From contig CM060732.1 in NCBI GenBank assembly GCA_030704615.1, forward strand, positions 46,562,001 to 46,626,000: a stretch of DNA of 64,000 nucleotides, read 5' to 3'. Below the pieces are notes generated by a model that saw only the letters and a program-made list of their open reading frames with translations, made no database searches and was not told the DNA's origin. This document shows, piece after piece, positions 241-43,200 of the stretch (positions are counted from its first letter, which is position 1; every line of letters starts with the position of its first letter). The translations under genes were made by a program, and so were the position numbers. This stretch comes from Takakia lepidozioides (taxonomy: Eukaryota; Plantae; Bryophyta).

Positions 241-249
241 ATTGATCAA

Positions 250-9984: not shown

Positions 9985-10489
9985 ATGGGGTTTTAATTTT
10001 TTTCCCCTTCAATAACTTATAATAAATTCAGATTGTGTGAGCAATTCATGGCCTTCAACCAAACTGTCTTTTGGCTTTGCTGCATTGAAGGACAGACGTT
10101 CATCAAGGCCACTTTAAAGTGGGGTTGTATAATCAGGGATACAATCCCTTTGTTATGTGAAATAATAATAATAATTATTATTTCTTTATTTTATTTTATT
10201 TTTTTAAAGAGAAAGGGATGGGAACACTGTTAATCAAATTAAGGAACGAGGAAAAAAATAACCTTGTGGGGGGCCATGAGGCAGAACAATGGGGGGAACT
10301 TACCACTATGGAGAACAGAATTTTTATATCACCTCTACACAGGTCATGGCTCATAAACTTATGTTGCTGATACTCCAGTCACGGCTGCAGCAGATTCCAC
10401 CTACACTAGTGATCCTACAAGTGCTGCCCCAGGGCCCACACATAAATATCATGTCTCACATGTCTTCCATGTCAACCCCGTCAGGATGA

Positions 10490-15720: not shown

Positions 15721-15790
15721 ACGTCAAGTGGTAATATTTGGAAGTGACCTCCCCTTGCTCAGAATAACGTCCGGATAGATGGGCTATATT

Positions 15791-16140
15791 CACTACAACA
15801 TATCGCGGTATATCTGACTGCCGAGCCGTGATAGTCATGGTTTTTCTGTCTTTGACCATGACTTCCGTGTATTTTTGGACCAAATAGGGCTTCACGTAGT
15901 CGTTGAAATGACTACGTGACTACGTAGTCATTTGGGCGACTACTTTGGTAGACGTCGTCATAACTGCATGGCTCCGCACTAGACGGATGGTTGGTCAACG
16001 ATGGTTGACCAGCGCAAACTCACCACCAAGTAGTCGTTGGAATGACTTCTAGTGCAAGCCTGGTAGCCAAAAGGTTTTTTTTAAAAAAAAAGTTGCCTAT
16101 AGGGTTGCCTATGAGAGGGCTGGGACTTAGTTTTCTTTTT
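15791..16140 (+). mobile_element. CACTA left terminus
   Basis: CACTACAACATATCGCGGTATATCTGACT matches the terminus at 5442, followed by ATGACT/GTAGTC subterminal repeats. Confidence 0.7.
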
Positions 16141-16419
16141 CTTTTTCTTGCGGTTTCCGAGTATTGAGTTGTTGTGTTGTGTCATGGACCTGTCATGGAA
16201 CGCAATGATCGCAGGATAGGGGCGTGGGATGGAGGCTTTGCTATTCTTGAGCTACTGATGCATGAATGGGCGAACCGCAATGGGCTCTTGGCTCCTGTTA
16301 GTCCCATGATTTGGTATTCTTCCTGATGTTTACAAGGTTCTTGGGAGAGACAGCTTGGTCTTAGCAGTCCGTGTTTCAATCGACGCCCGCTCCTGGCTGC
16401 ACCGTGGTGGTTCTCACAA

Positions 16420-17940: not shown

Positions 17941-20900
17941 ACAATTGGTGAAGGCACATTCTTCTTCAACCTATTTCAGCCTGTTTTGCCCTCTCATCAC
18001 GCTCAGCCCTGAATTTGCATATTGAATTCTGTAAGTTAGCTCGTAGGGTGGTTTTGTGGTGGTTTGTAGTGAGGGCACCTTTTTCTTCGACCTGTTTCAG
18101 CCTATTTTGACCTCTGATCATGCTCAGTCCCTGAATGAGCTTGATGATGAGGGAAAAACAGGCTGAAACAGGTCGAAGAAGAAGGCGCTCTCACCACAAA
18201 CCACCACAGATCCACCCTACAAGCTAACTTACAAAATTCAATATGCAAATTCAAGGCTGAGCCTGATGATGAGGGCAAGACAGGCTGAAACGGGTCGAAG
18301 AAGAAGGCGCCCTCACCACAAACCACCACAGATCCACCCTACGAGATAACTTATAGAATTCAATATGCAAATTCAGGGCTGAGCCTCATGATGAGGGCGA
18401 AACAGGCTGAAACAGATCAAAGAAGAAGGCGCCCTCAACACAAACCACCACAAATCCACCCTACGAGCTAACTTACAGAATTCAATATGCAAATTCAGAG
18501 CTGAGCCTAATGATGAGGGTAAAACAGGCTGAAACAGGTCGAAGAAGAAGGCACCCTCACAACAAACAACCACAGATCCACCCAACGACAGGCTGAAACA
18601 GGTCAAAGAAGAAGGCGCCGTCACCACGAACCACCACACATCCACCCTATGAGCTAACTTACATAATTCAACATGCAAATTCAGGGCTGAGCCTGATGAT
18701 GAGGGCAAAACAGGCTGAAACAGGTCGAAGAAGAAGACGCCCTCACCACAAACCAGCATAGATCCACCCTACGAGATAACTCATAGAATTCAATATGCAA
18801 ATTCAGGGCTGAGCCTGATGATGAGGGCAAAACAGGCTGAAACAGGTCGAAGAAGAAGGCGCCCTCACCACAAACCACCACAGATACACCCTACGAGCTA
18901 ACTTACAGAATTCAATATGCAAATTCAGAGCTGAGCCTGATGATGAGGGCAAAACAGGCTGAAACAAGTCGAAGAAGAAGGCGCCCTCACCACAAACCAC
19001 CACAGATCCACCCAACGACAGGCTGAAACAGGTCAAAGAAGAAGGCGCCGTCACCACAAACCACCACAGATCCACCCTCTGAGCTAACTTACAGAATTCA
19101 ATATGCAAATTTAGGGCTGAGCCTGATGATGAGGGCAATACAGGCTAAAACGGGTCGAAGAAGAAGGCGCCCTCACCACAAACCAGCACAGATCCACCCT
19201 ACGAGATAATCATAGAATTCAATATGCAAATTCAGGGCTGAGCCTGATGATGAGGGCAAAACAGGCTAAAACGGGTCGACAAAGAAGGCGTCGTCACCAC
19301 AAACCACCACATATCCACCCTACGAGCTAACTTACAGAATTTAATATGCAAATTCAGGGCTGAGCCTAATGCTAACTTACAGAATTCAATATGCAAATTC
19401 AGGGCTGAGCCTGATGATGAGGGCAAAGCAGGCTCAAACAGGTGAAGAAGAAGGTGCCTCACCACAAACCACAACAAATCCACCCAACGTCAAGCTGAAG
19501 CAGGTCAAAGAAGAAGCCGCCCTCATCACAAACCACCACAGATCCACCCTACAAGCTAACTTACAGAATTCAACATGCAAATTCAGGGCTGAGCCTGATG
19601 ATGAGGGGAAAACAGCTGAAACAGGTCGAAGAAGAAGGGGCCCTCACCACAAACCACCACAGATCCACCCTACGAGCTAACTTACAGAATTCAATATGCA
19701 AATTCAGGGCTGAGCTTGATGATGAGGGCAAAACAGGCTGAAACAGGTCAAAGAAGAAGGCGCCCTCACCACAAACCTCCACAGATCCACCCTACGAGCT
19801 AATTTACAGAATTCAATATGCAAATTCAGGGCTGAGCCTGATGAGAGGTCAAAACAAGCTGAAACAAGTCGAAGAAGAAGGCGTCATGACCACAAACCAC
19901 AACAAATCCACCCAACGACAAACTGAAATAGGTCGAAGAAGACGGCGCCCTCACCACAAACCACCACAGATAAACCCAACGAGCTAACTTACAGAATTCA
20001 ATATTCAAATTCAGGGCTGAGCCTAATGAGAGGGCAAAACGGCTGAAACAAGACGAAGAAGAAGGTGCCCTCACCACAAACTAGTACCACAGATCGACCC
20101 TACAAGCTAACTTACATAATTCAGTATGCAAATTCAGGGCTCAGCCCGATGAGAGGGCAAAACAGGCTGAAAAGAGGGCAAAAGTGCAGGTTGAAACAGG
20201 TCGAAGAAGGAGGTGCCCTCACCACAATCGACCACAGATCCACCCTACGAGCTAACCTACTGTCGTTGGGTGGATTTGTTGTGGTTTGTGGTGAGGGCAC
20301 CTTCTTCTTCGACCTGTTTCATCCTGTTTTGCCCTCATCATCAAGCTCAGTCCTGAATTTGCATTATTGAATTCTGTAAGTTAGCTCGTAGGGTGGATCT
20401 GTGGTTGTTTGTGGTGAGGGCGCCTTCTTCTTCGATCTGTTTCAGCCTTTTTGCCCTCATCATCAGGCTCAGCCCTGAATTTGCATATTGAATTCTGTAA
20501 GTTAGCTCGTAGAGTGGATCTGTGGTGGTTTGTGGTGAGGGCGCCTTCTTCTTCGACCCGTTTCAACCTATTTTGCCCTCATCATCAGGCTCAGCCCTGA
20601 TTTTGCATATTGAATTCTGTAAGTTAGCTCGTTGGGTGGATCTGTGGTGGTTTGTGGTGAGGGCACCTTCTTCTTCGACCTGTTTCAGCCTGTTTTGCCC
20701 CTCATCATCAGGCTCAGCCTTGAATTTGCATATTGAATTCTATAGGTTATCTCGTAGGGTGGACCTGTGGTGTTTTGTGGTGAGGACGCCTTATTCTTCG
20801 ACCTATTTTAACCTGTTTTGCCCTCTCATCAGGCTCAGCCCTGAATTTGCATATTGAATTATGTAAGTTAGCTCGTTGGGTGGGTCTGTGGTGGTTTGGA
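17940..20900. repeat. 122-bp satellite array with 64-bp deletion monomers and two orientation switches
   Basis: Monomer starts at 18701, 18823 and 18945 (period 122). Short 64-bp variants end at ~18588, 19018, 19488 and 19918. Orientation flips at ~18137 and ~20260. Confidence 0.95.
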
Positions 20901-22900
20901 GATCTCATGTTGATCTATAACCCTACTTGGCTGTGTCTTCTTTGTATACAGCCTAGGGTCTTTCTCGCTGTCATCACCTATCCTGCAAAAAGATAAGTGT
21001 TCTAACCCTACCCTTTCTGTATCACACCTGTCTTTCTTTTTTTCATTTGCAGTAGCAAGGGCAGTCACTCTCATGCTTGCTACTTTAATCAAAGGCCGAT
21101 CTACACATGTCTTTGTAATTCTTGGTGTCACTGTTTGATCACTTCTTTGCACAGGTGCAGATCCTACTTGCCGACTATTCTTCTTGGTGCTCTGTTCCCT
21201 TGTCCACAGCCCTTCAGGTATGGTAGCCATCAAATTAGCTGAGTTATCAAACCTTCTCTGGTCTTGATTCTGGTTCTTTGTTCCAGCATCACTTTCACCA
21301 AGATTGACTGTCTCCTCATCTTTTGTCTTGGCCTTCTCCATCACCACTACTCGCAATAATAACCCTTCCTTTGTGTGTAATGCAGGGATGGCCTGATGTC
21401 CACTCTCCTCACTTTGAAAGCCAAAAAGGCTTGCTCCATGGATCCTTTTTTTCAGCTAGGTTTTTGCTTGCTCCATCACTCCATCTTTTCACATCTGTAG
21501 ACTGAAACTGATTCCTCTCTTGATGAACTCGGACATTTGGCGGCACGCAGCTACCCTCATTGTCTTTGCTACATTCAAAATAGCTAAGTCTTCTGATGCC
21601 TTCCCTTGATCATGCTCATCCTTGCTGGTTTGTTTGTTCTGTTGTTGCTTGCTTCACAGATGCTTGCCCACTTCAACCAACACTGTCCCTCTTGTGGGCA
21701 CAGCTTGGCTTGCAATGCTTGAGCCTGCCTTGCCTTCCCTTCATCATTTTTCTTTGTTTTCTCACGCCACGGTGCTGCCTTTGCTTGTAGGTTTCTGTCT
21801 TCCTCACTGTCTTCAGATAGCCTGAAAAAAGATAAGTAATCTGTCTCCCCACTCTTGTTTTCCAGCTCAACTTCAGCTTCAGTAGCTAATGTTGTCTCTC
21901 CCTTGTCCACTGTCTCCCACATAGGCTGTTCTTTTTGCAATCTTGCCTCCCCTGTCCCTATCTGATCCTCTCGTGTGTAATGTGCAGGGTTCTTTTGCTT
22001 GGGTTCTTTAGTTTCCCTTCCATGTGTTGCTCCATTGTCCATGTCTCCTCTCCCTTTTCAGACTCGAAAGCTAAGCTCTCACCAAGTTCACTCTTCGTTG
22101 TTTTTTGTTTGGACACTTGAAGATCTTCAACTTGTGGGCTGGTTTGCTGCACAACAGCCACAACCTTTCTGTCTTCACCATGCTAAAAAATAGTTAAGTC
22201 TGATTGCTTCCCTCGATCATGCTCACCCTTGCTTCTTTGTTCGCACCTGCTGCTCTTCTGCTGCTGTTTGCTTTATGGCTGCATTCTCTTCTCAGCCACC
22301 ACTGCTTTTCTTGTGGCCACAACTCGTCCTTCCTTGCTTTCTCACCCAATTGTGGTCCTTTTGCTTGTAGGTCTTGTTCACTTTTTCTGTCTTCAGCCAG
22401 CCTGAAGAAAGATATGTCGTCCTTCTCCTTTTCTTTTCATTTGATCCTGTCTTTCAGCTCACCCTCAACTCCAGTGATAGACTCCATCTTCCCATACCTT
22501 CATAGATCAAGCCAAAGGCGACACCGCCTCTAAGCCTCCATTACTTTTGTCAGTAGCACCTCATCAAGCTCCCCTTGCCCTTAATGAATCGTCCTGCAGC
22601 ACTCCCTCTCTTCAAATCTTTGAAACAATCACTGCACTGCCTTCCTTTGCCTGGCTTGAGCACAAATTGCCAAGCAGTTCCCTGCACGATTATCCTCCAG
22701 CAAGCCCTAAGCTACCCATTCACCATAGCAGCGACGACACCGCCTCTACCACTCTGGCAGCTGCACTGGTTACAATGTTGCCACCCTTCACTCCTTACTA
22801 CTGCTGATCGAGAGATGTTCAAGGTGATTCTAAGACAAGCGGAACGCACTAAGTTACCCTCCATGCGCAGCCTTGCTCATTCTCCTGCTCGCAGCATCTG
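20900..22900 (-). other. Degenerate, internally repeated charged coding-like sequence of unknown (probably TE) origin
   Basis: Three related blocks (LSFCRIGDDSEKD, LSFFRLSEDSEED and a third near 22380-22420). Bases 21580-21900 are similar to 22190-22480. Broken by stops. Confidence 0.35.
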
Positions 22901-25487: not shown

Positions 25488-26397
25488 CTGGGCAACTCGG
25501 AGTGCCAACAGACTAGTCTCTTCGGACAGCCCAGTCGTTTCAATCATGACGTGGTCGGAGTGGTTTCGGTTAGTCGTTCTGCCGACTGCGGCTCAATTTG
25601 GAGGGGGGGGGGGGGGCATATGGCAGCGTCGTGCGCAGCGTTGACTGAATCTTGGACCTTGACTAAGTGGACTTTTGACCCGTGGGGTGCGACTTCCCCA
25701 CGGCGACGACACTGGAAATACAGTCGTGCGGCCATGCGTCAAAACGCCATGTGTTCTCTATCGTGGATGTGACCACGTGCAAGCCTAAGGCCACACCGCG
25801 TAGCGCAATAAGTTGTTTATTGGTTGCCTTTACGACTTGCAAGTGGAGTCAACAACTAGAGTGTTGAAGTGATAGATGCAACTAGAGGTTTGAAATGCAC
25901 TACTTCACTAATGATATACATCGACTATGGGTTGGGAACCAGGCACTCGTAGTGGTTGCAGTGACTTGGGGGTTGCGACTTGTAGTTCATACATGTGCAA
26001 TACTATTTCTATTGTCTCCGAATAGCAACACAGATGCTACGATGGCCCTACTACAACATTGCAATCAACACAATCCCCTGCACACAGCCACTGATCTTGC
26101 GGATGTGATTGAGACTGGAGAACATACAGACCATCCCATCAAAGCACGAAAAGAAATAAACATGATGAAAAGCGCGTGACATTGTAATAAGACAATATCT
26201 CAAAACTGTCCCTTTACAATGCACAAACTCATGAGTTTGTAACAACTATGATTAGAACCAAAAAAAAAAACCTATCGCATATGGTTCTCCTGCACCTAAC
26301 TTAAACTTCACTTCAAGCCCTAGAATTGCCTCTAAATCAATAGAATTATCTTCAATGGACTGAGTTCAACACAGAGACGTGTAGCGAACCTCAAAGT

Positions 26398-26574
26398 AGC
26401 TGCTTCAGGTTTTATAGGATCAGCAATAACAATTGCTCCAATCAGTTCCTTGCCAATTGCAACCAAGACGCCTATTCTTGGCAGAGTCTTAGTTTCTTGC
26501 AAGATATCGCAGGCATCTACTGAGATCTCAATGCCAAACTCTGTCATAAGTTCTCGGTTACCAACTAGCACCTC
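26398..26574 (-). pseudogene. Orphan fragment of a P1B-type heavy-metal (copper) ATPase, HMA5/RAN1-like
   Basis: EVLVGNRELMTEFGIEIS..ILQETKTLPRIGVLVAIGKELIGAIVIADPIKPEAA matches the N-domain/P-domain junction of Cu-ATPases. No other part of the gene is nearby. Confidence 0.75.
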
Positions 26575-28254
26575 CCCCCCCCCCACCATGTTGTTGCCGT
26601 TGTTTTTTCCATGTCTACGGCCATGGCAATTACGTCTTATGAGTACATCCCCCCCCCCCCTCTCCCTTTTAGTGTAGCTAAGTCCTCATAGCACCACCCA
26701 ACACTGATGACCAGAAAGCAAAAAAGAAGGAGGAACAGGTGGTAGTGAAAGGCAGTCACATTGAGAAACAGTGATAAAGCCAAAAAAAACAAAAAAACAA
26801 AACAAAAAATAAATAAAAAATGAGCTACTGCATGGGGTCAATACTATACAACAAGAGATGAATGTGTTTGGGGTCACTACTAATGACAAGAGAGAAAGAG
26901 AAAGAATGATTGAGGAAGAGCGAAACAAGAGCAAAACAAATGATGATGAAAGAGAGGACTTAACTTTTGAGTTGAGTAGAGAGGAGAAGCTTTGTATGAA
27001 GGCCGTCAGGCTAGGCTTCCTCAGTCATTCACATTGGCAGAGACAGTGTCGACGCCATCCATGGCACCAAGTTCTCGCCCGACTGTTACCGAGGCGGAGG
27101 TAACTATGTCATTGGGGAGAGCTATATGGGTAGCACCGCTACCTAGTGTTGCCAAGGCTACGACAGCTAGTGTGGTGCTAGGAGCGGCCACATCTGTGTG
27201 CCAGACTCCATTGTTCTCGGCTACCATGATTGCGACGCCGGGGGTAAGACCAGCTGAGGTGTTCAGGCTGGCAGCTACACTCTGTGAGAGTGGGGAGGTT
27301 ACTTCATCTTCTGCGGAGATAGTGGGAGGTGTAGTGCCGGAGGGATCCTCGGATTTGAGGGTCAAGACTGCCACAGCGGCGCCATGGCAAGCTGCAGCTG
27401 CCAGGTTGATGGAGCTGTCAGCTAGGCCAGCCATTGAGCGCACCATGGTGACACCTAGAGTTGTCATGTTAGACAACCAGGATGGCATTTTCTATTTGAG
27501 TGGACCGGCAGGCAAGAGATACCGGCCACTGCGGGTTTTGTTGGACTCGGGAGCTCAGCCATTGATGCTGGGCAGAACTGCTATTGCAGGCTTGGGCCTC
27601 ACGGAGGCGGATATGGAGCCTTGTCCTTTCCAGATACAGACGTCTCTGGGAGGATCGGAGCAGGCTCGGGGCATGACATGGCGTGAGTTGGCTATCAGAC
27701 TACGGCCGGATCACCCTACAGATGGCTCAATGATGCGAGCCAAGGCCATTGTGACAGACGCGGTCTCATACGATGTCCTGGTTGGTGGGGCAGTGTTGTA
27801 CCCCAAGGGCTTCACCCTGGATTTTTGGGAGGAATCAGCTTCCTAGAGGCCTGCATGGCAGTCAGGGGAGGGCCGGCGTGTGCAGCTCCATGTGACGTTC
27901 ATAGGAGGAGTTGTGGTTACCCAGCGAGGCAAGATGCCGACACTAGCAGCATTCACAGCGGCAGTGAGTTGGCCTATAGAGTTGCTTGAGGGCAACGCTC
28001 ATTCAGAGGATGTGCCACCTCCGGGAGAGGAGGATGACATGTATGGTATGGCGGAGTTACCTACTATGGTTGCTCAGACTCCATTGTGGGGCACGAGAAA
28101 AGATTTGCAGTGGGATGCTGATCGACGGGTGCAACAAACCTGGGTGGAGGCTTTTGTACCGTCAGGAGAGGAGGAGAGTGCGGGGATTGCACCAGGACCA
28201 CCTCAGTTGTCTCCATTGGACACCACACCTATTGTGTGGCAGTATCTGGATGAA

Positions 28255-29210
28255 GGCATTTGTCTTCTGGACTTGTTTGGCGGGATCAGCACCGGATTAC
28301 ATGCTGTATTACAAGCAGGTGTACGAGTCTGGCGTTACCTGTATGTGGAGAGGGATGAGACTGCACGACGCGTTTCATTTTGTCATGTTGCTCAGTTGGT
28401 GCAACGGTACCCTGAGTTGTTGTCGGTGTCTGCAATTCGTGGATATCAGCAGGCCTTGCCAGCAGACATTTTGTTGCTGGGGGCGCAGGATTTGGAGCGG
28501 GTTGGCTCCATTGATCTGGTAGTGGCAGGTTGGCCCTGCCAAGGGCATTCATCAGCCGAGCATGACAATGGATTGCGAGACTCGAGGTCGGGTCTGTTTT
28601 GGGAGATGGTGCGGGTTTTGCGCCACTTGCAGCTTCATCAAGCTGTATCTCCAGCATACATCTTGGAGAATGTGCCACTGATGGGCGATTCTCGGGCCAG
28701 GGTGATGGCCAATGTGCATCAAGTCCGGTCGTGGCTTGGGTCAGCAGTGTTGCTAGATGCAGCTACAGTGGGGTCACGGGCTCATCGACCACGGCTATGG
28801 TGGACTAACTTGATGCCACCCGCACTGCTCAAGCGTGCATTTGATGGGGTGCAGCGGCCAGCACATCTCACATTGGATAACATTCTGGACACAGGGAGGC
28901 AGTCTCAGCGTGTGAGACACGATGACCGTTTGCCTTTGGCAGTGGTCAACAAGGTGGGTCAACCACGAGCAACATTACCTACACTGCTCAGCTTCCCAGG
29001 ATCGCATGCTTTCCGGGATAGTGGACCTGGCCTCCTGTGGGATGCTCAGTTGCAGCAATTAGTGGAGCCTAATGCTGATGAGCGTGAGCGGGCAATGGGT
29101 TTTACCACTGGTACCACGGCGGTGTCGTCTCTTTCTGAGGCATCACGTCATCAAGTGTTGGGGCAAGCAATGGATCTCAATTGCTTGACCTGGATTATCA
29201 GCTTGGCTCT
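28255..29210 (+). CDS. C5 cytosine DNA methyltransferase domain embedded in Gypsy pol (open frame 27880-29505)
   Basis: Motifs occur in canonical order: I LLDLFGGIS, II YVERD, III PADI, IV DLVVAGWPCQGHS (catalytic PC), V LRDSRSGLF, VI YILENV, VIII RAHRPRLWW, IX ERERAMGF, X LGQAMD. Confidence 0.92.
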
Positions 29211-32200
29211 GGCTGAGCAACGCAGAGTGCGGAGTACACTTCCCTCGATGGTCTCTCTGCCTACCGAGATGGTACAGGCAGTGAGTGGGGGCGAGCATGT
29301 GAGGACCACGGGGTGCATGCATCCATGGCACACGTGGGAGGTGCTCGAGGTTCAGAGGGAGTTGGCAGCCAAGGCGGCTGTGATGGATGAGGTTGGGGAT
29401 TCTTCTCGGGTTGAGGAGGTCCTCAAGGATGAGATGATGGGGCAGGATGAGGCCTTGTCATTGACTGAACAGGCAGGGAGTACTGCTCAAGAGGTTGCAA
29501 CATAGCAACCACTGGACGCGTTCTCTACCTCTAAGCCCACTGGACTTAAAGTTGCAGTTACGGAGGACAACTGGGAGCCTGACATTGGACCCATTGTCAC
29601 CGGAGGAGAGAGATGACGTATACGGCAGTTCCTGAGGGCTTACAGGAATTGCTTTGCCTTCAGTTTGAAGGACTTGGGAGCACTGAAGGGTCAAGAGATC
29701 CGTATTGAGTTGGCCACTGACACGCCAATCTTTCGGAGACCCTATAGATATAGTGACATGGAGAGGTCTTTGATTCAGATGAGGACTCAAGATCTCTGGG
29801 AGGCAGGTTTGATGGAGCTCTCTGGTGGAGAGTATGCTTCAGCCACAGTGATGCCAGCCAAGAAAGATGTCTATGACAATTGGATGGAGAGACGTATGTG
29901 CGGTGATTACCGGTCTGTAAATCGTCAGACCAAGTCCGATAAGTATGCCATGCCAACACCAGAGGAGATCTTTGATGCCATCGGGCATGCTAAGGCCTTT
30001 AGCACTTTGGATTTACGATCCGGATATCACCAGTTGCCAATCAAGGAGGCGGACAAGCAGAAGACGACATTCTGGGGGATCAATGAGCACGGCAAGGATT
30101 ACCTATATCAGTGGCGGTTCTTACCATTTGGGCTTAAGAATGCTCCTACAGAGTTTCAGAGAGTCATGGATAGGATTCTAGCAGGGGTGGACTTTGCTCG
30201 GTGCTACATAGATGACATCATCATCTTTAGTGTTACGATGGAGGAGCATGAGAGACACCTTCAGGTGGTATTGGAGCGCTTGAGAGCGCACGGATTGAAG
30301 TTGCATCCGGGGAAGTGCAAGTTTTTCCACAACCAGATTGAGTATATGGGTCACATGATATATCCTGGAGGATTGGGGGTACAACAGACTAAGGTAGAGG
30401 CCATTGCACAAATTCCACGCCCCACGGATGTGAGCCGAGTTCGAGCTTTCATGGGGTTGGCAAACTATTATAGACGGTTTGTCAAGGGATTTAGTACCAT
30501 TGCAAAGGCTCTAACCAAGCTGACCAAGGTGGACCAGGAGTGGCAGTGGGAAGATGAGCAGGAACGAGCTTTTCAAGAGCTCAAGGCGAGGTTGACCTCG
30601 GCGCCTATCCTGAGACGACCTATCAGGGGGCGTCCCTTTCAGCTGCATACGGATTGGAGCATGCTGGGGCTTGGAGCGGTGCTCACACAGGTGGATGATG
30701 AGGGAAGAGAGTTTGTAGTGGCTTATGCTAGCCGCTCGAACAATGCTGCAGAGGCTAAGTACAGCTCATATGAGGGAGAGTGCTTAGCTGCAGTGTGGGC
30801 CGTGGCACACTTCAGGTGCTATCTATACGGCAATCTTTTCACCCTTATCACGGATCACTAGCCACTCAAGTGGTTGATGGAGTCAGACAAGCTGACGGGG
30901 AAGCTTGCACGGTGGGCACTTATACTCCAGGAGTATGACTTTCAGGTTGTGCATCGACCGGGTTTGGTCAATCGGGATGCGGATGGATTGAGTCGCAATC
31001 CATGCATGAGCCAGCAAGATGACACTGGAGCTCGGTGGCATGGTGAGACGGATGAGGAGATGGTGCCGGGATGGCATGCATCTGCATTTTTGTGTATCTT
31101 GGCATCGGAAAGTCAGGTTGGACCTACAACAGGGATGACTGTAGACGGAGTGTCTGAGGACCCTGAGGCTAGTGATGAGCCAGGTGGTGCCAGGGATATA
31201 CATGAGGATTCGGCTGTGTTGGACTACCTCCGCACGGGAGACACGGCAGCCACTCTGACTGCCAGGGAGAGGGATCGGATCCTGCAACGAGCCAAGAGGT
31301 TCAAGTGGGAGGGGATACACCTACTTTGAGTGTGGGAGAATGGTCGGGTGAGGATTGTGCCTCACCCCACACAGCGTGCACGGTTAGTGCGGCATGCCCA
31401 TGAGGAGTTGGGGCATTTTGGAGTGCGACGCACTCACAATTTACTGCAGGGGCAGTATTGGTGGCGTGGTATGCATACAGAGGTGCAACAATTCGTGGCT
31501 AGGTGCATGGTGTGTGACAGGGTGTGTGCTTCATTCAACGCCCCTACACCATAGTTGCATCCTTTACCAATCATGGGATTGGGCTACAGGTGGAGTCTTG
31601 ACTTCGTAGGACCGTTGCCACTGACTATGCGCCATCACAGATATGTGTTGGTGATGGTGGAGCACTTCTCCAAGTGGATTGAGTTAGTTCCATTGCCTGA
31701 CAAGGCTAGTGAGGGGGCTGCGAATGCATTCTTGGATCGTGTGCTTAGCCGATTTGGTGCTCCAGCTGAGGTACTCACGGACCAAGGGAGAGAGTTCTTG
31801 GGGAGTTTCAGGCTTTGTGTGATAAAGCCTTGATAGACCACCGCACCACTTCTCGGGATCATCCTGAGGCCGATGGCTTAGCAGAGAGAGTTGTTCAGAC
31901 GGTGAAGAGGGGTTTGCGCAAGTATGGCTTGCAGAAGGGACACCTAGGAGATTGGGATCTTCAGGTTCATTGGTTAGCCATGGGCTACAGGTTCAACAAA
32001 CAAGCATCACTTGCCTCCTTCTCACCATATTTCCTTCTCTTTGGCCGAGAGCCGGATTTGCCTGCTGCCATTCGTAGGGACACTGCTCAAATCCTTAACC
32101 TTGACGATCCGGACGTGTGGGTACGTGCATATGATCAGCATGCAGAGTTGTTCAAGAAAGTCATGCCCATGGCTTTTGAGAACCTTGCCATTGCACAACA

Positions 32201-32494
32201 CCGTGATACGTTGAGGTATGCCACTATACGTGGTGGAGGATATCGTCATGGGGTTCGGAGGTTTAGCCCTTGTGACTATGTTTATTTGCAGCAGACTGCT
32301 CCTACGACTCTGGATGTTACTGCAGGGCGTGTTATTCTGAGGGTTCGAGAGGTGTTGCCCTCAGGGGTCCTGATCTTGGAGGGTCGGGATGGCATGACTT
32401 GGAAGGACCATGTGCGTAATTGTGCGCCATGTCACCTCCCCAATGTCGATGACAAAGTTGACCCAAACTTGGCAGTGGTACCTGCAGGTTTGAG

Positions 32495-32639
32495 GTGCAT
32501 GCTCTGTGGGTCTGCCAAAGGGGCAGCCACCATGCTGGTGTGTGATCGATGCTCAAGGGGATGACATATGGGATGCTTGACACCACCTCTTGAGAAGGTT
32601 CCTGACGGAGATTGGTTGTGTCCACACTGCTTGGGATAG
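32495..32639 (+). other. PHD finger at the integrase C-terminus
   Basis: CMLC..MLVCDRCSRG*HMGCLTPPLEKVPDGDWLCPHC is a C4-H-C3 pattern. The stop at 32562-32564 sits where W is expected; the natural stop is TAG at 32637-32639. Confidence 0.9.
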
Positions 32640-32899
32640 TGGCAGTGGACATGACTGGAGGCAGCTAACAAGACATGGGAGGCCAAGCTCATAGGAGTCA
32701 ATACATGAGATCCCAAGCTCAAGTTCACAGGTTGCAAGACGGTGACTAACAATGGGGCAACTCTTGCACCCGGCCTCTTGATCTATCGAGTTTGAGTGTA
32801 GTAGGGATAGTGGTGGAGGACTTAGTGAGGCTATGGTCATTATCACATCTTGTGGCTACCTGGACTTAGAGGGATCTAAGCACCAGCTAGGGGGGCGAT

Positions 32900-33074
32900 T
32901 GTGTGGACTAGTGACTGCCATAGTGGGCAGCATAGTGGCAACCTAGTGACTGACTAGTTGTAGCCTAGTGGTTGGACTAGTGGTGGACTAGTGGTATACT
33001 AGTGTGTGGTGTGCACATGTGTTGTGTGGTTTTGGACAGCGATGTAGTTGTGTACGATATGTATGCGCACGACA
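32900..33074 (+). repeat. Short 3' LTR (~175 bp) of the DNMT-Gypsy
   Basis: Begins TGTGTGG just after AGGGGGGCGAT and ends CACGACA exactly where LINE RT sequence resumes. It contains about six CTAGT(G) motifs. Confidence 0.7.
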
Positions 33075-33690
33075 GGGCACCCTTGGCGTGCAAACCGCTG
33101 AAGAGGGAATGAGGCTGATAAGTGACCATTCACTGAGACCCTGCTAGATGAGAATGTGAACAATATCGTAACCCATTTGCAGAAGGATTGGGGAAAACCC
33201 AATTTTGCCAAGGCTGCAAGCAGGTATGACCATTCAACTCGATCGAAAGCCTTTTCAAAATCCAAAAGGAGGAGAGCTATGGCTTGATTTGCCCTAGAGG
33301 CATAATCTGGAATTTCTTGGGCCAAAAGGAGGTTATCGAGTATATACCTACCCTTGATAAATCCTGTTTGGTTTGGCCTTATAATTGATGGAAGGAGGGG
33401 TTGCAATCTGAGTCAGCGCCTTAGCCACGATTTTGTATGCAACATTTGGAAAGGTTATGCGACGGTAATTGGATATGTTTGTCCTATCACCTTTTTTGTA
33501 CAGTAAGGTGATAACCCCTTGTGACATAAGGGGGGGAATGTGCCCCCGGTGTGAAATCCCCCCAGATCTCAGGCCACAAAGCTTTGTAAAGTTCAACAGA
33601 CATTCCATCCATTGGCTTTGGTATTGAAGCTGAAAGGCTGGAAGGCTGGTCAATGAGCTCCAATATAGTTTGGTAGGCACGCCGCATCCT
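33075..33690 (-). mobile_element. L1/Tx1-clade LINE reverse transcriptase fragment, cut by the Gypsy LTR
   Basis: Reads GVITLLYKKGDRTNISNYRRIT..AYKIVAKAL, then LPSIIRPNQTGFIKGRYILDN..LDFEKAFDRVEW..VSVNG..RQGCP. It is truncated right after QGCP. Confidence 0.9.
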
Positions 33691-34240
33691 TGTGGCCGGG
33701 GCTCTGACCATCCACAGTTCTTAAAAGAAATAAAGATAAAAATCTAAACATGACCAATCATCCGCATTAGTAGTTGGACAGGCGGTTTGTCACCGGGCGA
33801 GGAAGAGGAGGGTGGCCCCATGGCGGAAACTGGCAGGGCACTAGGTCGTCTTGTCGCGCGAGGGCCACGCTGCGCAGTGCCCCCGGCCCCATGGGCTTCT
33901 CTCTCATGCTTCCTCTCTTTTTCTTCCCTTTCTTCCCCGTCTCCCCCTTTCAATTCTTGTGAGAAGGTCCCATTTTAGTATTGCAAGCAGTTTTGTGGAA
34001 AACTGCAAGGATCCGCACGATTAGGCAGAAAGAGAGGAGTTTGTTAGGATCTGGCGAAGGCATCCTAACATCGGACTGCATTAAAAGCAGTTGTGTTGAC
34101 GATTTTGAAGAATCGACAGAAAGAAGGGAGAGAGGAGTTTTAGGGTTCGGTGAGCGCACGGTTTGAAGCAAGCGTAGAGGTGGAGGCAGGCACAACCTAA
34201 CATCCATGCTAATGCCGGCGTGCAAAAACGAGCACAATCC

Positions 34241-37200
34241 ATGGCGCGGGCCTCCAACAGCAACACCAAGTTTGCATCCGTAAACCTGAACAAGAGCTAT
34301 GGCAAGCCGGCAGTCACAGTGCCAGGCGGTCTGGGAGGAGGAGCTCCGTCGTCCTCTGGCCGCGCCCGGATCTCCTCGCAGGGTGGCATGCTCCTTCTTA
34401 CGCGGCCGGGCCGTCCGCAGCCTGCTGCCGCCGCCCAGAAGGGTGGCAAACTTACAGTGCCGCTCCCTGTTAATCTGCCCTCTCTTCGGAGGGAGCATGC
34501 AGGGAATGATCCTACTATCGCGCTCGTTGGTGGCACTTCAGGATGGTCGAAGACTCAGCAACAAGAGGAGTCGACGGTACCTGCTTCTGTGACTATTTCA
34601 TCAGAGTCTGCAGGTATGTTTGGTTCCATTCAAATAAAGAATGTCGCTTGAAAGCATACGACAACGGAAGTATGCACAAGCACATGATGCTGCATATAGA
34701 TGTACACGCTCAGGGACAAAATCGAGGAGCCAGAAATCTGTCGTCTTTACATCGGTTGAATTTTCCCAGCAGCCAAGACTTAAGGCATAGAGAGAAATGT
34801 AGAACGATTTAACTGTCTACCAACACGCTCATGACTGTGGTGGCTTTACAATGTGGCTTAATGGCTAGAAACTTTTCTATTGTACTTTCTTGGTTGCACA
34901 TTGGCTCCTATTGACAATTTACTCAAGGTAGATCTCCCCTACCGTTTTATTTGGGAGGATGGAGAATGCAGGGAGGAACAGAGGCGAGGGCGGCATACTT
35001 TGGAAAAGACAAAAAAGGATGTAGAAGCTTCAGGCCAATGAAACTATGGGGTTGTAGAGGAGGGCATTACCCTACCTGTTTAGACATGCCAATAGAAAGA
35101 GATCTTAATGGAGAGATATTGAGAATAACACAGGCAGAAAGAGGGTCATATCGAGAATTAATTAGAATGTACTCGAGGCGATTCAGGTGAGAGTTAATTA
35201 GAATGTACTCATAAGACGTTGTTTGCCGTAGCCTCGCGGCCATTGATGAGAGTGAGATCAGTAGAGGTGCTGAATGCAATAGGTCTGAGCGGTATGTTGA
35301 AAGGTACATCTGTGGGTTTTGAGTGCAACTCTTTAGACAGTCTGATTTGAATTTTTTCGCAGTCTCTTCACTGATCCCCCCTGAAATCCACCAGCATTGT
35401 TTATTCCAGGCATTCCAAGAGTGTCACCAGCTCTGAGTGCTGGATCCACATGGGGGACATCGGCCTCGCCACCTGGGCTTCCAAGTGCATCTGTCAACGG
35501 CGAACACTGGCCTGTGCCAATCCAAGTAGCAAGCCACAGGACAAATGAAGCAGTAGCGAACAGACCAGGTGTATACAGGCCGCCTCGTGGGCACTCCCTG
35601 CAATCCAATTCTGCCCCCCTCCCAGCAGGAGATGTGGGCCCAACAGTGGCGAAGGCTGTAGTGCTGAGAGGAGAAGACTTCCCTGCATTGCAGGCGGCCC
35701 TCCCTCTTCCTCCATCCCCTCCCCAGCAGCGGCAGAAGGAGTTACAGCAAAAGCAGAGGGAGAAACAACAAGAGCTCAAAGAACAGCAACAGCGGCTGCA
35801 GCAGCTCTCCGAGCAGCACTTGTCACCCAAGGAAGATGCCTTGCAATCCCAGTATGGAGGTTGGTGTTTATGTCCACCATTGTCTTAAAGAACTCTTCTC
35901 AGTCACATTTGGATGAGTCTGAAAATTAAGTTTGCTGGGTGAGTAGAGCACAACAGGGAAGGAAACTGTCAAGAAAGCTTAGAAGCCTGATAGGGGGAGA
36001 GATTACTGCTGTCATGTTAAGACGGTTCGATTGATCCATACAGAATGAGACACATCCAATCCTTTACAGTCTCTTTCCATGTTTTTCAGCTTACTTCTAG
36101 TGTGGGTGGGTGTGTGGGTTTCATGTAGTTTTAGTTTTAATCGCTAGAGCTAACCACATTGTTAGTCAAGCACTTGATGCGCAAGATTAGTACATCAGAA
36201 ACCTGTGCCAAAGATACCAAATATTTACTTCAAAGGTATGATATTTATCATATCATAGCCTGGAGGTTTTCAAGCTAGTATACTGCGTCATCATATTTCT
36301 ATCCTCTATTCTAAAAGGACCGAAACCCATACGCAGGTTTGGGAGAAGAAAGCCCCTTAGATGGGAGCTATTTGTAGCTTTCAAGGCAAGGGTGAGGCCT
36401 TACCTGCTTCTGTCCCACCAGGCTTCTCTCGCTTCACCTATGTTCATGTGCACCAAGAGAGACATAGGAGACTCGAGTTGAAATGACAGGTAGAACATTG
36501 CAGAGTTCGAACAAGTAGATCAATGTTTGGAAAGCAGCAAGGAAAACCTTCTAACTTATGCTGTAGGCATAAGCCTCCCACTGGAGTGTTTCTTTAGGAT
36601 GAGGCCATACCGCCAATCTTCAGTTTCATGCATCCAATGATAGAGTCTTCGTTCCTTGAGAAATGCAGACTGAGCTGTTTCTCTTCTCATCGAAACCTCT
36701 ATGGCATGGAAGGTGCAAGGATAATATCATGCTCATTTAACAGTTACCAACTCAAGCCTCTGGAAGAAATCAGGTTGGATTGTGGTGGAATCAACTACAA
36801 ACCCCAGCATTAAAAGAGGTTGCAGGTTTTACAGTAGCTCAATGTTAATCCAGAGCCCTAGTTTTGCGGGATCTCTATCATGGGTGATTCGAAACCCGAA
36901 AAATCCCAGTTATACTGGACAGTTAATAGAGAGGACAGAAATAGGGAATAGGCACGTGAGGGGCTCACTCCAGTAGTGTGACTTACCTCGATATAAACAA
37001 TTAGTTTGGCTTTCCAGATAGCCCTTCACACACGCACATCAATCTGCTGTGTGTGAGCGGTCCAAAAGTGAGACCCCAACAGGCCAGGGCTTTAGGCTCA
37101 GCCTCTAGATTTTGAAAGTTGGTATGAACAGAGGTGCTGGAACCATGTTCCTGAAGCTCTGGTGAGAGATACTTGGGACAATGAATCTGAAAATGGATAT

Positions 37201-40200
37201 TTCTTAAGGTTATTCGCACATGGCGCAATTACAATCTCCTTTTCCTCTCTTTATAGTTTGTTGTTCAAAGGTAGGCTGCCCGCCCTGAGTTTAAATGTAA
37301 GTTCAGTAGAGAGAGTGACGAGAAGCTTCAAGAGCTTATGGGACAAAGAAAGAAAGAAGTTTGACCCGACCAAGAAAGCTATTCCATTGTCAGAGGGACT
37401 CATCTATGTAAGCTTCTCCTCATAGTTGCAAACTACAGTCAATAATCTAAGACTTTGAATAGTCAAAAGCTTATTGCCCTCAAATTTCATAATAGGGGGA
37501 GACCGACAATGTTGTCCTATCTCAATCCATGGCCTTCTCCTCTGCATGCAATTAGTACAAAGTGTCTCCAATTGGGGCAGGTTCTTCTACCCATCTTAAA
37601 TCCACCTCTCTAGTTACAGGGCCCTTATAAGACATGGAGACAGTTGACGGAGAGAAATGATCGCTGGTATTAGTGACAGTTATTTGGGGGTCAGCTTTCT
37701 CTGTTAAACTGTTCGAGATTGCCATCTTTTGGTTTATCCAATGACCTATTGCTCTGTGCATGCATTGGGATAGGGCCTTTTGCAGAGCCCTAAGCCCTGG
37801 TTGAAATTTCAGACAACTGGTTTCTCTTTAGCTGTTTAATTGGTCATATGTGACTTGCAATCTGAGCTGGCGCAGGTCCCCAACTTCAGCCGGCACATCC
37901 AGTGATCTTGCAAACAAAGATTGAAGATCCAACGAAGATTGAGGATCCAACGGTCTTTGAGGAGGGTTCAGTGCGGCATGAGCACCGAGGCTCCACACTG
38001 ATTCAACCAGATACAAAGCCTGACAGATACTCGTTTGGGCCTCCCTCCCCCACAAATCGGATACGCCGGCACTCAAATTGGACAGATGATGAAAGAGACC
38101 CTGCCCCCAGCTTTCGTCCTCAGGGATTAGGGTCCTACCCTGACTGGTCGGACCGTTCAGAAAGTGACCCAGAATTGCGCCGTGCTCCTCGGGGGAGTGA
38201 TGAATTTTACAGCAGCCGGCCCCCCTTCCACAGGGTATCGCAGCCCTCTCTTGTGGCAGGGCGAGATCCGAGTCTCAGCAGGGAGGGCGATGGGAGGGGC
38301 AGTGGGTTTGGTGTTGATAGTGCCTTGACCAGAAAAGCTGTGAACATCGGTAGTTTCGGCCGTGAGGGCGGACTTGGTAGGGAGGACAGCAGCGGCAGAG
38401 AGGATGGGTTCAATTGGGAAGGGGTATCCAGCCAAGACCGGGGGGTTTATGGGAAGGAAGGCAACTCCAATAGGGATGCCGGATATGCAGGTTGGGGGGG
38501 TTTCAGCCGGCAAGCAGGCCGCGATTTTGGGGCTGGCAGGGAGAGTGGGTATGAAAGAGATGGATGGTATGGCCGGCCAACGAGCGGTGGAAGGGGTAGA
38601 TTGCAAGAGAGGCAAGGTTCTTTGAACAGAGACCCCGCATTTGGCAGGGAGGGTGGTTTCCAAGAAGGGGGATTCAATAAGGATACTGGTTTTGGTCGGG
38701 ATAGTGGCTTCAACAGGGATGGTTTCCTTGGGAGAGAGAACAGGCAGCCACAAGTGGGTGATCACGATGGGGGTCGTGGTAGATTTGGAGACCGGTTTAC
38801 AAGAACACGGTTTGAAGGGTCAGACTTTAAGCCTGGTGGTTTTGACTCCGGCGTGGACTTCCGCAGGGAAAGGCGTGGCTATGGCAGTCACCACGAAGAT
38901 CCACTGATGAGGGATTTGGTTGAGATTCCTGGCTTAGACAATTTTCGACCTGCAATAGGCGTGGGCATTGAGCCTCCCTTGACCCCTTTTTTGGGTTTGG
39001 AAACCAAAGCTTTCCGCAGGAAGAAAGATGAGGTGAAGGATAGCGATTTTCGAGATCCAGAGAGAGAGTCATTTGAGGCTGAACTTGAGAGAGTCCAGAA
39101 AGCTCAGGAGCTTGACCGGCAGAGGAAGATTGAAGAGAAAGAGCGGGCAGTGGAAAAGGCACAGAAAGAAGTCGAGGAGCGCGAGAAGCTAGCCAAAGAG
39201 GAAGAAGAGAGACAGGTATGTAATTTTTGCTGTACCTAGTGAATGGGAGGGGAGGGTGGTAGGGAGTGGTGTGGAGGTTGATAAGTTGCAGGAGGGTGAG
39301 GGCACAGGTGTTGTATTGCTTGATTTTTCATCCACTTACTGGTGATAACATGGTTTGACAGTCAAGCCTGGTCCCTACTCATTCTTAAACATTCTATTGC
39401 TGGGCGAGGTTCATGAGGTTGTACAACTGGCCATGTAGTTCCAACCTTGGCTGGCCAAAGCATGTTCTATGTGGCACACTGCAGTGGGAAGTTCGTCTCA
39501 AAGGAATCCGGAACTGATTAACTCAGAATGGCTGCTGGGGACCTTGCAGTGTCAGATTCTGATGATTGATGTGGAGAATTTATGTTTTCAATTCTCCTCA
39601 TTGGTTTGTGAACATATCGACCGTCTATAGTAACCCAATGGAAGATTGAGTTGAAGGATTTACTAGGTCCTTTCTCCTAAAACGATATGCAGTGGTGCAC
39701 ATAGTTGGAAGCCCTATAAAGTGGCGACAAGCAGCGGTAGCCAGTTTATTGCGTCACCACTTGTCCTCTTTGTGTCGAATTCGACTCATGTGTCGATGCT
39801 GGATGTTTTGTGGATGCACAACTGAGTGGCACCATGTCCAGTAGGTCTCTTACTACAGGCCTCACATACTGAAATTCAGGATGCCCCTGGTTTTGTGGTA
39901 TCAGAGCTAAGTTTGTGTCCTCATTTGGTAGTACATAATCTGCAGTTCTATGGTAGCACTCTTCAGTCCCAAATACCGAAGTTGTAAACCGTTGCATTAT
40001 GTTTGTCAAAGCAAACCCTACAGGCAAAGCTGGAGGAGGAAGCCATGGAGGCAGTTGCAAGAGCAGAGCGGGAGACGTTAGAGGCAGTCCAGAAAGTAGA
40101 GGATGAAAGGAAGGCACGGGAGGATGAGAAACGGCAAATGCTTGTAGCGGAAGAAAGACGGATAGAGAATGCGCGGCTCAAGTTGCTGGAGCTCGAGGAG

Positions 40201-43200
40201 CGAATTGCAAAACGTGAGGCAGAGAAGAAGAGAGAGGAGGATGCCAGGTATCTTTCCTTCCATACTTGGTGCAGTAATGTTTGAATCTCTGGTGGAGTCT
40301 TGAAACCCCAACAATGTGAGACAGATAGTTGGAGCTTTTTAACTGTCAGCAAGTGTTTCTTCCGGTATTGAGGTGCCGGCTGGAGTTTTGTCAAGCCCAA
40401 CTGCATTGCAGTCGAATACAGTCAGTCCCTTGAAAGGCTAACTTTTCCAGGTATCTATTTGATTGGTTGTGTCGTTGTCGAATCTGATCTCTTCAGTTTT
40501 ACCACCAGGGTCCAGGACGAGGTGAGAGTAAGGTCAGCACAATCGGCAAAGGAGGAAGAATCACAACACTGGGATGACCTAGACAGGGAGAAAGTGGAGA
40601 GGGAAGACGAAGAGAGGCTGGTTGTCAGCATCACAGGTGCTGACCAAGAAGATGATGACCGCGCACCATTGTGGTCTTCATGCTCAGCAACCCCCCGGCC
40701 ACTGTCACAAGGGTCAGTGGCAGACGAATTTGCTTCCCGTGGCAAGTCTCAAGAAGTTCGCCCCAGCCCCCTGGACCCAGGTGCCCGGTTACCCAAATAC
40801 CGAGGGGGGAACACTATGTTTGAGTCTGACCGCAACCGGCCCTTTCTCCCCTGGAGGAGGGTCGACAATGGAAATGGACCTGCACTTTCCTCCCAATTTT
40901 TTTCTTCTTACGGACGTGATGAAAGTGGCGAATTCCAGGCTTCGATGCTGCGTGATCGGGTCCATAACGCACAAGGTTTTTGCGACAGGGGGGAGAGCCT
41001 CTACAGCGGGGGAGCTAATGGTGTTGGCTTCCCCTTAGAAGGGGAGGCAGGGGAGTTTTCAAGAAAAGATCGTGTTTCCCACTACGCCGAGCGGCGGTGG
41101 GCAGGGGAGGAGCCAGGGCTGCCCAACAAGTATCCAGCCTATTTTCGTGCAAACACTCCCGATGTTGATGGCAGTTTTTTAGATAATTCTGGGGAACGGG
41201 AGGGGGATCGCCGATGGGCCAGAGATAGGGATCGCTGGAGGGGAAGAGAGGCACTTGTGTCTCCGCCACAGACTCCTCCTTATTTTCAAGGTTCGGATGT
41301 TGTGGAGCCTTCTCCTTATGGGCGATTCAGGCACTCCTTGCCCAAGCAACCACGGCCTCCGCCTCCCCCTGTGCGCAACACTCAACATCGGCCACCAGCA
41401 AAAGTCGTCGATGAGTCAATCCCCACATCACCTTCACCTTCTTTTCAGTCACAGGATCGCAATGTTAGAAATATGCCTCGGCAGGGATGGATGGCCACGG
41501 AGAAACAATCTAGACACTTAGAGGAGAAAGTTTCAAAGGTGGAGCACGCTGAACTCCCTAAAGCTAGCAAGCATGTGGAGGTTTCACAGGATGGCGCAGA
41601 AGTACAACGAGTGAGGGCTTGGGGACCACCTCAGAGGGAGGGTCACGAATCGCATTCATCTCTCCGACAACAGCATTCAGTTGCTGAAGTGTTGCAGGTG
41701 CCATCACCTGAGGTATTGGCCCCTGAGGAACCTCAGTCACAAGAAAGGGACGATCTGTCGTCACTGGCAGAGCAGGAGCAGTCTGAAAGACCAGATGAGG
41801 GGAGAGAGCCGGCCACATCCATGGCTATGGTGGATATTGATAAAGAGGGCATTGAAGGAGAGGGAGAGGATCACGGGTACAAAGATGAGGTTGAAGAGCG
41901 ACAAACTGATGTAAGTGACAATGACTTCGAAACCTGCAAATTCAACCACACTCTTCTTGATGTTGTTGGTTACCAAGATATTGTTTTTCATTGTTCTCAT
42001 TGCGAGGGAGTTCAAGGTTCTAGAGTTGAAAACAAGTCAGGCTTGTGAAGGTTTAAGCAAGGCTGATAAAAGAAGTGTGGAAGCTGGTGTCTGACCTATC
42101 TGGCTTTTGGGCAACAATGGTTTCTCTTGGTTCCTAGTTTGGACGGAGAGGTTGCTAATATGTGGGCTTTGAAATGGGGTAAAGGAGGGAGAGGATGATG
42201 GCATCCAAGAAGGGGATGAGGAGGGATATGAAGGCTATGACGAAGAAGAAGAAGACGATGACGAGGACATCGAAGATGGTACGAAGAAATTTTCCATCTT
42301 TGCCTTTCTGATCAGTTGTTAGATGGGTTTACAACTTGGACAGCTTCTTCTCTTTCTCTGTTAGTTGGTTACCTTTCTAATGCGAGTCTGGAGATTACTC
42401 TACACTTAATTGATAGGTTGACTCTAATCTCAATTGTCGCACGGTATGTGAACATATTTGAGACAGATTCCGAGTTGCGTGGTCTGTGTGTGGGGAAGGC
42501 CACCCTGTGTGCTTTTATATTGTTTCCTGTACATCTTTGATACTTTTCTAACTATATCACTGATGACTGCTGTCTGCATTAGATGATCCAGACAAAAGTG
42601 CATTTAGGGAGCTCGTCCAGCAAGACATGACAGAATTATCAGAGGGTGTTTCAAAGGAGGGAGAATATTGCCAAGAGGTTGAGGGCTTAAATGGAAGGAG
42701 TGTGGAGGTTGGGGCTGGGGCTAAAGTGGACAACTTAAAGGACCTGGAAAGTGTGAATGAGAAACCATCAGGCACTGAGCTCCATGAATGGCCGCCACAG
42801 AAGTTGCAGGTATGCTCTTTTCTTCTGTACTTAGTTGCAGCAAAATTTTATGTGGGAGGTCTCCTCCGTGCTGCAGTGGCTCGTTGTCATTGTTTGGAGA
42901 ATGGAAATTATGAAACCATTATCATTTCTTCTGGCGTCTTTAGTGAAATGTTCATGGAGTATCTGGACCATTCAGCGGTCAAGGATGAGTTTGGAAAAAT
43001 TTGTTCAAGGCGCTTGACACATCCACATTCTAGAGTCCATTGATTATGCTCACACATGTGCCTGCTGCAGAAAAGTGGACTATAAAGTTGGCTCTCCACC
43101 AAGTAAATGTGTAGCGTATTCTAGCAGGTGTTGGCACTGATTGCTTGTGATGCCACAATGCCATTGCAGATACATAACCCACAGAACGAAGAGAGGATTG

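Follow-up and report, generated by a model that had tools for sequence, protein, structure and literature searches.

A Gypsy retrotransposon family of bryophytes in which a DNMT3-like methyltransferase closes the Gag-protease reading frame and may mark new element DNA

The DNA analyzed here, referred to as the window, is a stretch of 64,000 nucleotides from Takakia lepidozioides (contig CM060732.1, positions 46,562,001 to 46,626,000), and all coordinates below are those of the window. Between 27002 and 33074 it holds a Gypsy retrotransposon that encodes a C5 DNA methyltransferase (DNMT) related to DNMT3, and the domain map and contig depth identify this stretch as a dead copy of a high-copy family, Gypsy-DNMT3. 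Our reading is that the DNMT of this family ends the Gag-protease open reading frame (ORF) at a family-fixed stop codon, is likely produced at the level of the capsid, and would act within the particle to methylate newly made element DNA; we put this at somewhat better than even odds (roughly 0.55). Since 2018 the function of DNMTs carried by retrotransposons has awaited an answer, and a family present in Marchantia and Sphagnum, with their genetics, methylation mutants and methylomes, makes the question testable. From the fixed stop one would expect the DNMT to be a bulk component of the particle and not a Pol-level accessory, and the element ends predict an integration route that is non-standard for long terminal repeat (LTR) elements. 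Gene counts are affected as well, since bryophyte proteomes list DNMT domains of these elements as DNA methyltransferases of the host.

The features of the copy are as follows.

27002 to 33074, + strand: 5'-truncated, decayed copy of the high-copy Gypsy-DNMT3 retrotransposon, without gag and without the 5' repeat A, as delimited by contig depth and domain map
27400 to 27849, + strand: aspartic protease with an LDSG active site at 27541; PF13650 at E 0.007, below the cut-off; stop at 27844, at the domain end
28240 to 29229, + strand: DNMT3-like C5 cytosine methyltransferase, stop-free, PF00145 at E 1.7e-11; motifs I to X kept, catalytic Cys codon at 28537-28539
29503 to 29511, + strand: family-fixed stop in CAR-YYA context (TAG CAA CCA), end of the Gag-protease-DNMT ORF and candidate leaky stop
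29590 to 30969, + strand: reverse transcriptase and RNase H, YIDD at 30205; copy-specific stops at 29614 and 30859
31180 to 32459, + strand: zinc-binding (HHCC) domain and DDE integrase; two stops private to the copy (31327, 31552), frameshift near 31799
32496 to 32630, + strand: C4HC3 PHD finger at the integrase C terminus, split by a stop at 32562, PF00628 on both halves; intact in relatives
32889 to 32895, + strand: polypurine-tract-like AGGGGGG directly before repeat B; the same tract precedes the first B in relatives
32896 to 33074, + strand: repeat B with a terminal CA, where the short A-coding-B form of the element stops; both of its boundaries agree with those of B in related loci

Pfam and motif matches gave the order protease, C5 methyltransferase, reverse transcriptase (RT), RNase H (RH), integrase (INT; HHCC and core) and PHD finger. 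This is the order that a preliminary description of the window had proposed from its letters, together with an uninterrupted DNMT domain, which is indeed stop-free with its catalytic PCQ and ENV kept; the Pfam matches it had suggested looking for, PF00145 and PF00628, were both obtained. Its single pol frame did not survive translation. Positions 26980 to 31833 keep one phase, but six stops lie in that phase (27844, 29503, 29614, 30859, 31327 and 31552), and in the translation of 26686 to 32700 they are followed by the frameshift near 31799 and the stop at 32562 inside the PHD finger. Likewise, of the proposed extent of 26960 to 33074 the right end is exact, whereas homology starts at 27002 and both gag and the 5' repeat are missing. 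Contigs from public sequencing runs cover the element about three orders of magnitude above the flanks (approximately 0.5 to 1.3 million in run X1, against 92 to 344 on near-unique flanks), the DNMT being as deep as RT and integrase, although such depths are not copy counts; loose contig ends were seen in run X1 at 27002 and 33054. In these contigs most other copies of the host family lack the stops at 29614, 30859, 31327 and 31552 and the frameshift near 31799. Unlike those four, the stop at 29503 is common to the host-family copies. Relatives have a sense codon at the positions of the stops at 27844 (Tyr) and 32562, and neither of these stops is among the 40 listed of 656 host-copy differences.

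The DNMT motifs I (FGG), II, IV (PCQ), VI (ENV), VIII (HRPR), IX and X (GQAM) aligned to DNMT3A in the unrearranged order I to X. Human DNMT3A was also the best sequence match (E 4e-10), with DNMT3B, DRM and HhaI weaker, and a structure model built on 22 relatives (predicted local distance difference test score, pLDDT, of 89.3) matched DNMT3A, B or C in every PDB match listed, the best at E 3.8e-19. The DNMT3 assignment is made by sequence and fold matches and motif order. The PC dipeptide, the ENV glutamate, the His and Arg of motif VIII and the glycines of the S-adenosylmethionine (SAM) loop were invariant in 22/22 aligned relatives, down to 35% identity, and among mostly decayed segments PCQ was kept in 28/39 and ENV in 37/39. 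Against the related loci, the nonsynonymous and synonymous differences (pN and pS) were 0.21 and 0.76 for the DNMT (38 loci) and 0.18 and 0.78 for RT; dS is saturated in most pairs (32/38 for DNMT), so that dN/dS values are rough. On these values the DNMT is under purifying selection equal to that on RT and is not evolving neutrally beside a constrained RT. This bears out the earlier claim of a DNMT that forms a conserved part of a Gypsy family; a one-off capture or nested insertion is ruled out by the selection on the DNMT, by its equal contig depth and by the occurrence of 80 related loci.

At the other end of the protein, all eight ligands of the PHD finger are kept, and the finger of an intact relative matched those of KMT2C/D, CHD4, KDM5B, PHF21A, DPF and UHRF proteins. 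Several of these fingers read unmethylated H3K4, and as a lead the PHD of the element family may bind it too. The Pfam search of the element gave no match to a chromodomain, and with a PHD finger at the integrase C terminus instead, the element does not qualify as a chromovirus. It is likewise set apart from the tyrosine recombinase elements (DIRS/Ngaro) by its rve integrase and by 4-bp target duplications in 5/5 insertions of its relatives.

The stop at 29503 is the feature on which the two-ORF design rests. Over 29430 to 29640, host-family contigs gave 21 variant rows at a threshold of 4%, none of them at 29501 to 29512, in 4/4 runs and at a depth of approximately 640,000 in X1. A metagenome scan further yielded 158 related stretches; the 80 retained as loci (L-numbers) group with Sphagnum proteins. 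Where a locus holds both the DNMT end and the RT start, one phase is kept in 38/60, with exactly one stop in between in 25/38. Anchoring on a downstream motif, found in 36/80 loci, left 34 distinct sequences of a related family, and the stop was present in all 34 (24 TAG, 10 TAA), followed by CAA in 33/34. Four more diverged loci (L057, L069, L074 and L078) read TAA CAA TCA or TAA CAA TTA, in frame with RT. As a control, CAR-YYA followed 1 and CAA 25 of 1296 decay stops, and the most recurrent decay stop was shared by 8/38 loci in the DNMT and 8/26 in RT. The contexts of the 29503 copy and of these four diverged loci fit CAR-YYA, which has been tied to stop-codon readthrough (PMC3441728).

The protein sequences divide in the same manner. 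In the DNMT clade that holds the 27002-33074 copy (support 0.943), 74 of the 78 proteins end without RT, 51 of these at 50 to 190 residues past the domain, and the four that run on past the DNMT are NCBI eukaryote gene models. The matching RT-RH-INT-PHD proteins, of approximately 1040 amino acids, have neither protease nor DNMT. Examples of the first ORF, reading Gag-CCHC-protease-DNMT, are P0002, P0020 and P0027, and of the second P0271, P0272 and P0443. With the stop fixed in the family, these sequences therefore define two ORFs, Gag-protease-DNMT and RT-RH-INT-PHD, which are likely joined by leaky readthrough. Such readthrough would place the DNMT at the level of Gag and apart from the PHD finger. 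A candidate RNA stem 3' of the stop was not supported (fold z -1.9 for the 27002-33074 copy and -1.1 for L004; 6/28 pairs double-changed in 8 sequences; best pair r2 0.21 over 34 loci).

Full relatives are arranged as A-coding-B-A-B (L050, L055/L059) or as A-coding-B (L019, L034, L071), and the five independent insertions with both ends carry the 4-bp target duplication mentioned above. Repeat A, of about 340 bp, starts with TG, contains TATAAA and ends in CA; repeat B, which is 115 bp in related loci, follows the purine tract and also ends in CA. Two variable spacer letters separate B from A at 7/7 junctions. The 27002-33074 copy keeps the first B only, and other host copies continue past B by two letters and then TGTC. 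Both junctions occur as loose ends of host-family contigs: B-A in 22 contigs of X1 and, in register with the loci, A-B in one contig of X5. Within one element the two B copies have private letters in common (L049, L009), and no such letters unite the second copies with one another, as would be expected if both B copies of an element derive from one template. An 11-mer that starts 31 nt after TATAAA is exactly complementary to the 11 letters following the 5' A; the match is exact in 9/19 on each side, and six more primer sites have one mismatch. No primer site for a tRNA, and no TGG, was seen after repeat A in related loci. The Tf1 primer is 11 nt long. Self-priming from a site complementary to the transcript 5' end has been described for Tf1 and Tj1 (PMC4600332, PMC6317226). 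The simplest reading of this layout is an LTR B-nn-A, with the integrase probably working on a circle at the internal CA-nn-TG junction. Directly adjoining the 3' end of the element, a decayed LINE-type reverse transcriptase at 33075-33743 (- strand; PF00078, E 1.6e-13) is probably the insertion target.

Taken together, these observations suggest the following course of replication. The domain order and the conserved in-frame stop between DNMT and RT fix the starting point. The context of the stop, of CAR-YYA type, suggests that readthrough by a few per cent of ribosomes yields RT-RH-INT-PHD, after which the protease would release the DNMT. The 11-nt complementarity points to self-primed reverse transcription as in Tf1/Tj1, with the polypurine tract priming the plus strand at repeat B, which would give a cDNA with the true LTR B-nn-A. 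From the repeat layout and the 4-bp duplications, the integrase would act on the CA-nn-TG junction inside the LTR, probably on a circle, a one-LTR circle yielding A-coding-B and a two-LTR circle A-coding-B-A-B. The DNMT would methylate the cDNA, each new copy thereby resembling host repeats in its marks on arrival; the PHD finger would separately steer the integrase to nucleosomes, probably those with unmethylated H3K4. SymbioDIRS-Dnmt3 provides an active precedent for the enzyme (PMC5890265), CAR-YYA readthrough one for the stop context (PMC3441728), and Tj1 one for the stop and for self-priming (PMC4600332). More broadly, and only tentatively, the family might represent a green-plant LTR lineage of ancient origin and high abundance in bryophytes that combines a DNMT at capsid stoichiometry by readthrough, self-priming, DDE integration of circular cDNA via an att junction buried in the LTR, and new copies pre-methylated on PHD-chosen chromatin, with the enzyme adding to the host methylome in high-copy genomes.

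Several observations weigh against the reading of a Gag-level DNMT that marks new cDNA, and they are set out here with the alternatives. TAG CAA is out of frame with RT in two heavily decayed loci (L067, L070), no stop plus CAR was found near the estimated RT start in nine heavily decayed diverged loci (L051, L054, L056, L060-62, L064-66), and CAA CCC, the sequence in the main related family, departs from CAR-YYA by one letter. Outside the DNMT clade described above, 18 proteins run from DNMT into RT without a stop, and one of them, P0281, sits in the RT clade of the 27002-33074 copy; by these sequences, the stop is not required by the lineage as a whole. Expression of the second ORF could also rely on removal of the stop by splicing, the Ogre route, or on ribosomes that start again at an AUG close by, an unlikely alternative to readthrough that would still leave the DNMT linked to Gag. 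An ATG at +9 in 33/34 anchored loci would allow re-initiation, and a Met stands 17 to 27 residues ahead of the RT anchor in P0268, P0271, P0272, P0275, P0276 and P0279, but the host family has no ATG before RT, with none in frame in 29506 to 29640 from any listed host-family variant. For splicing, which has its precedent in Ogre (PMC6317226), a pyrimidine tract ending in AG about 30 nt past the stop is a possible acceptor; the codon phase of the candidate acceptors, however, differs between the host family and the related one, and one contig of run X12, whose RNA origin is a guess, crosses the junction unspliced. Against both routes, the frame is kept on both sides of the single stop in those 25 of 38 same-frame loci. 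With respect to the ends, the A-B-A-coding-B form predicted by the circle model occurs in 0/19 loci with a 5' A, which counts against its symmetric version, and the short A-coding-B forms could come from recombination between two B copies.

The enzyme might instead act outside the particle, in the nucleus, on integrated copies, the insertion site or rival elements, as a chromatin effector and not a cDNA marker. Output at the level of Gag would far exceed what two cDNA copies need, change counts in the public-run contigs reveal heavy C-to-T and G-to-A decay of host copies, and self-limitation and host methylome effects are discussed in PMC5890265. Nevertheless, we regard nuclear action as improbable: the place of the DNMT within a protease-processed Gag chain points to packaging, and host enzymes can account for both decay and CpG depletion, which are no stronger than in the flanks. 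The CpG ratio of the element, 0.51 against 0.45 to 0.49 in the rest of the window, carries no special footprint of self-methylation, and this bears on the cDNA-marking reading as well. So does the behavior of KnitGypsy-Dnmt3, the closest tested enzyme, which gave no methylation in yeast, a result that its authors call inconclusive (PMC5890265) and that is restated in PMC12344493. It would fit a domain kept for binding DNA or SAM, or for RNA methylation, with little or no DNA methyltransferase activity, which we hold to be somewhat less probable than either of the foregoing alternatives given the invariant catalytic and SAM-loop residues in all 22 relatives and the survival of PCQ and ENV in decayed segments. 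The preliminary description had paired writer and reader in the manner of the DNMT3 catalytic domain and ADD. A single polyprotein in which the PHD finger targets the DNMT, as ADD does in DNMT3A, now appears very unlikely. Single-ORF DNMT-RT-RH-INT-PHD relatives do exist (P0281, P0316, P0317), and a readthrough product would briefly carry both domains, but the family-fixed stop leaves the two mostly on separate chains, about 1100 codons and protease sites lie between them, and the PHD stays on the integrase in relatives whichever side of RT holds the DNMT. The analogy is weakened to that extent.

Searching with the DNMT returned 58 proteins that are longer and 243 of similar length; those that carry a name come from Marchantia, Calypogeia, Riccia, Sphagnum and Klebsormidium. 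The RT search added Closterium, Coleochaete and entries coded Tetstr1, which we take to be Tetraselmis. Named proteins place the Gypsy-DNMT3 kind in land plants, in liverworts and Sphagnum, so that the suspicion of a DNMT-bearing element in a land plant proved right. Among the matches listed, no vascular-plant element with a related DNMT was named, and no Selaginella or Physcomitrium name occurred among 120 RT matches listed; six pattern matches in viral contigs included no relative. Trees were built with FastTree only and midpoint-rooted, after removal of columns under 70% occupancy; proteins covering too little of RT or DNMT were excluded, which took P0048 out of the DNMT tree. In the RT-RH tree, all DNMT/PHD lineages split from ordinary Gypsy elements plus P0372/P0375 with support 1.0, and the backbone linking the clade of the 27002-33074 copy to the Klebsormidium protein P0048 has support of 0.1 to 0.8. 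Twelve proteins outside the DNMT clade of the copy carry the DNMT after RNase H. A sister clade (P0034, P0035, P0039, P0040, P0043, P0053 and others) reads RT-RH-DNMT-INT-PHD and is supported in both trees (1.0 for RT, 0.964 for DNMT); the DNMT domain therefore moved once within the lineage, and the PHD remained on the integrase on either arrangement. In P0055 a related DNMT lies within a DIRS-like RT together with a Dam domain (PF05869), and P0372 combines Dam, integrase and PHD. Two element proteins, P0402 and P0086, are filed under bacterial names (Synechococcales, Obscuribacterales) and probably come from plant or algal contigs in metagenome bins. In L057, L066, L069 and L074, a diverged copy faces an inverted protease-DNMT or RT-INT fragment head to head, and several contigs show this one rearrangement.

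Elsewhere in the window, a multi-exon host gene with a BAT2 N-terminal domain spans 34178-50363 (+ strand), which we take to be MOS1-like; among the named clusters (3 of the 10 best) it matched Riccia (E 1.9e-57) better than Diphasiastrum (E 2.7e-38), which taken by itself would point to a bryophyte host, probably a liverwort. Upstream of the element, 26332-26685 (- strand) resembles an exon of a heavy-metal P-type ATPase, by eye and with no Pfam match, and is covered by contigs of run X12, possibly RNA. A second, unrelated decayed Gypsy element at 60314-63724 (- strand) groups with ordinary Gypsy RTs in the tree. Between 16400 and 23500, 122-bp repeat arrays in two opposite orientations (18036-20260 and 20263-20946) form long inverted arms of 91 to 94% complementarity, and in 1-17800 decayed pieces of PPR-like genes, recognized by eye, cluster on the two strands.

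Among known systems, the closest is KnitGypsy-Dnmt3 of Klebsormidium nitens, with a Dnmt3-like domain in Pol, DIRS-like repeats and Ka/Ks below 0.2 (de Mendoza 2018, PMC5890265). The preliminary description was right to cite a Klebsormidium precedent, but it is closer than was stated, sharing domain order and repeat layout: both have Gypsy RT and DDE integrase, a DNMT3-like domain between protease and RT (P0048), purifying selection and DIRS-like split repeats (PMC5890265). The bryophyte family shows the hallmarks of Gypsy-DNMT3, namely the protease-RT-RH-INT order with DDE integrase, an unrearranged DNMT3-related domain, split repeats and purifying selection. It differs from KnitGypsy-Dnmt3, which has one Pol ORF and few copies in an alga, in its land-plant hosts, its great abundance and the fixed stop at 29503, which keeps the DNMT out of a single Pol ORF with RT. 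Neither a PHD finger nor a priming or integration mechanism was found in the text of PMC5890265, and three of its supplementary text files contain neither KnitGypsy nor PHD. SymbioDIRS-Dnmt3, which methylates CG de novo in yeast, resembles the family in its DNMT3-like domain in a retroelement and in its A-coding-B-A-B repeats (PMC5890265), but it has a tyrosine recombinase where the bryophyte family has a DDE integrase and 4-bp target duplications. Tj1 and Tf1 of fission yeasts share a stop that ends the first ORF with Pol in frame, and a primer site complementary to the transcript 5' end; in Tj1, however, the stop is at the Gag end before the protease, the LTRs are ordinary and there is no DNMT or PHD (PMC4600332). 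EpiLTRs also combine a methyltransferase and a histone reader in one retroelement, although theirs are DAM, a DNMT4-related domain and a chromodomain in place of a DNMT3-like domain and PHD (bioRxiv 10.64898/2026.05.21.726589). That preprint names 'streptophytes (Gypsy-DNMT3)', and no mention of land plants, Marchantia or a stop codon was found in its text, supplements lying outside the search. PHD fingers are widespread on retrotransposons (PMC6673714, PMC8557442). For the PHD-tailed integrases that the preliminary description had attributed to Selgy, no paper joining Selgy and PHD was found, and the main text of Neumann 2019 is without 'PHD' (additional files were outside the search). In a literature search whose scope excluded subscription papers, theses and repeat databases, the family in land plants, its fixed stop and its priming and integration were not found described. 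Overall, the element belongs to a described kind, and the present analysis adds its range among land plants, an organization in two ORFs that groups the DNMT with Gag, and a replication anatomy that can be read.

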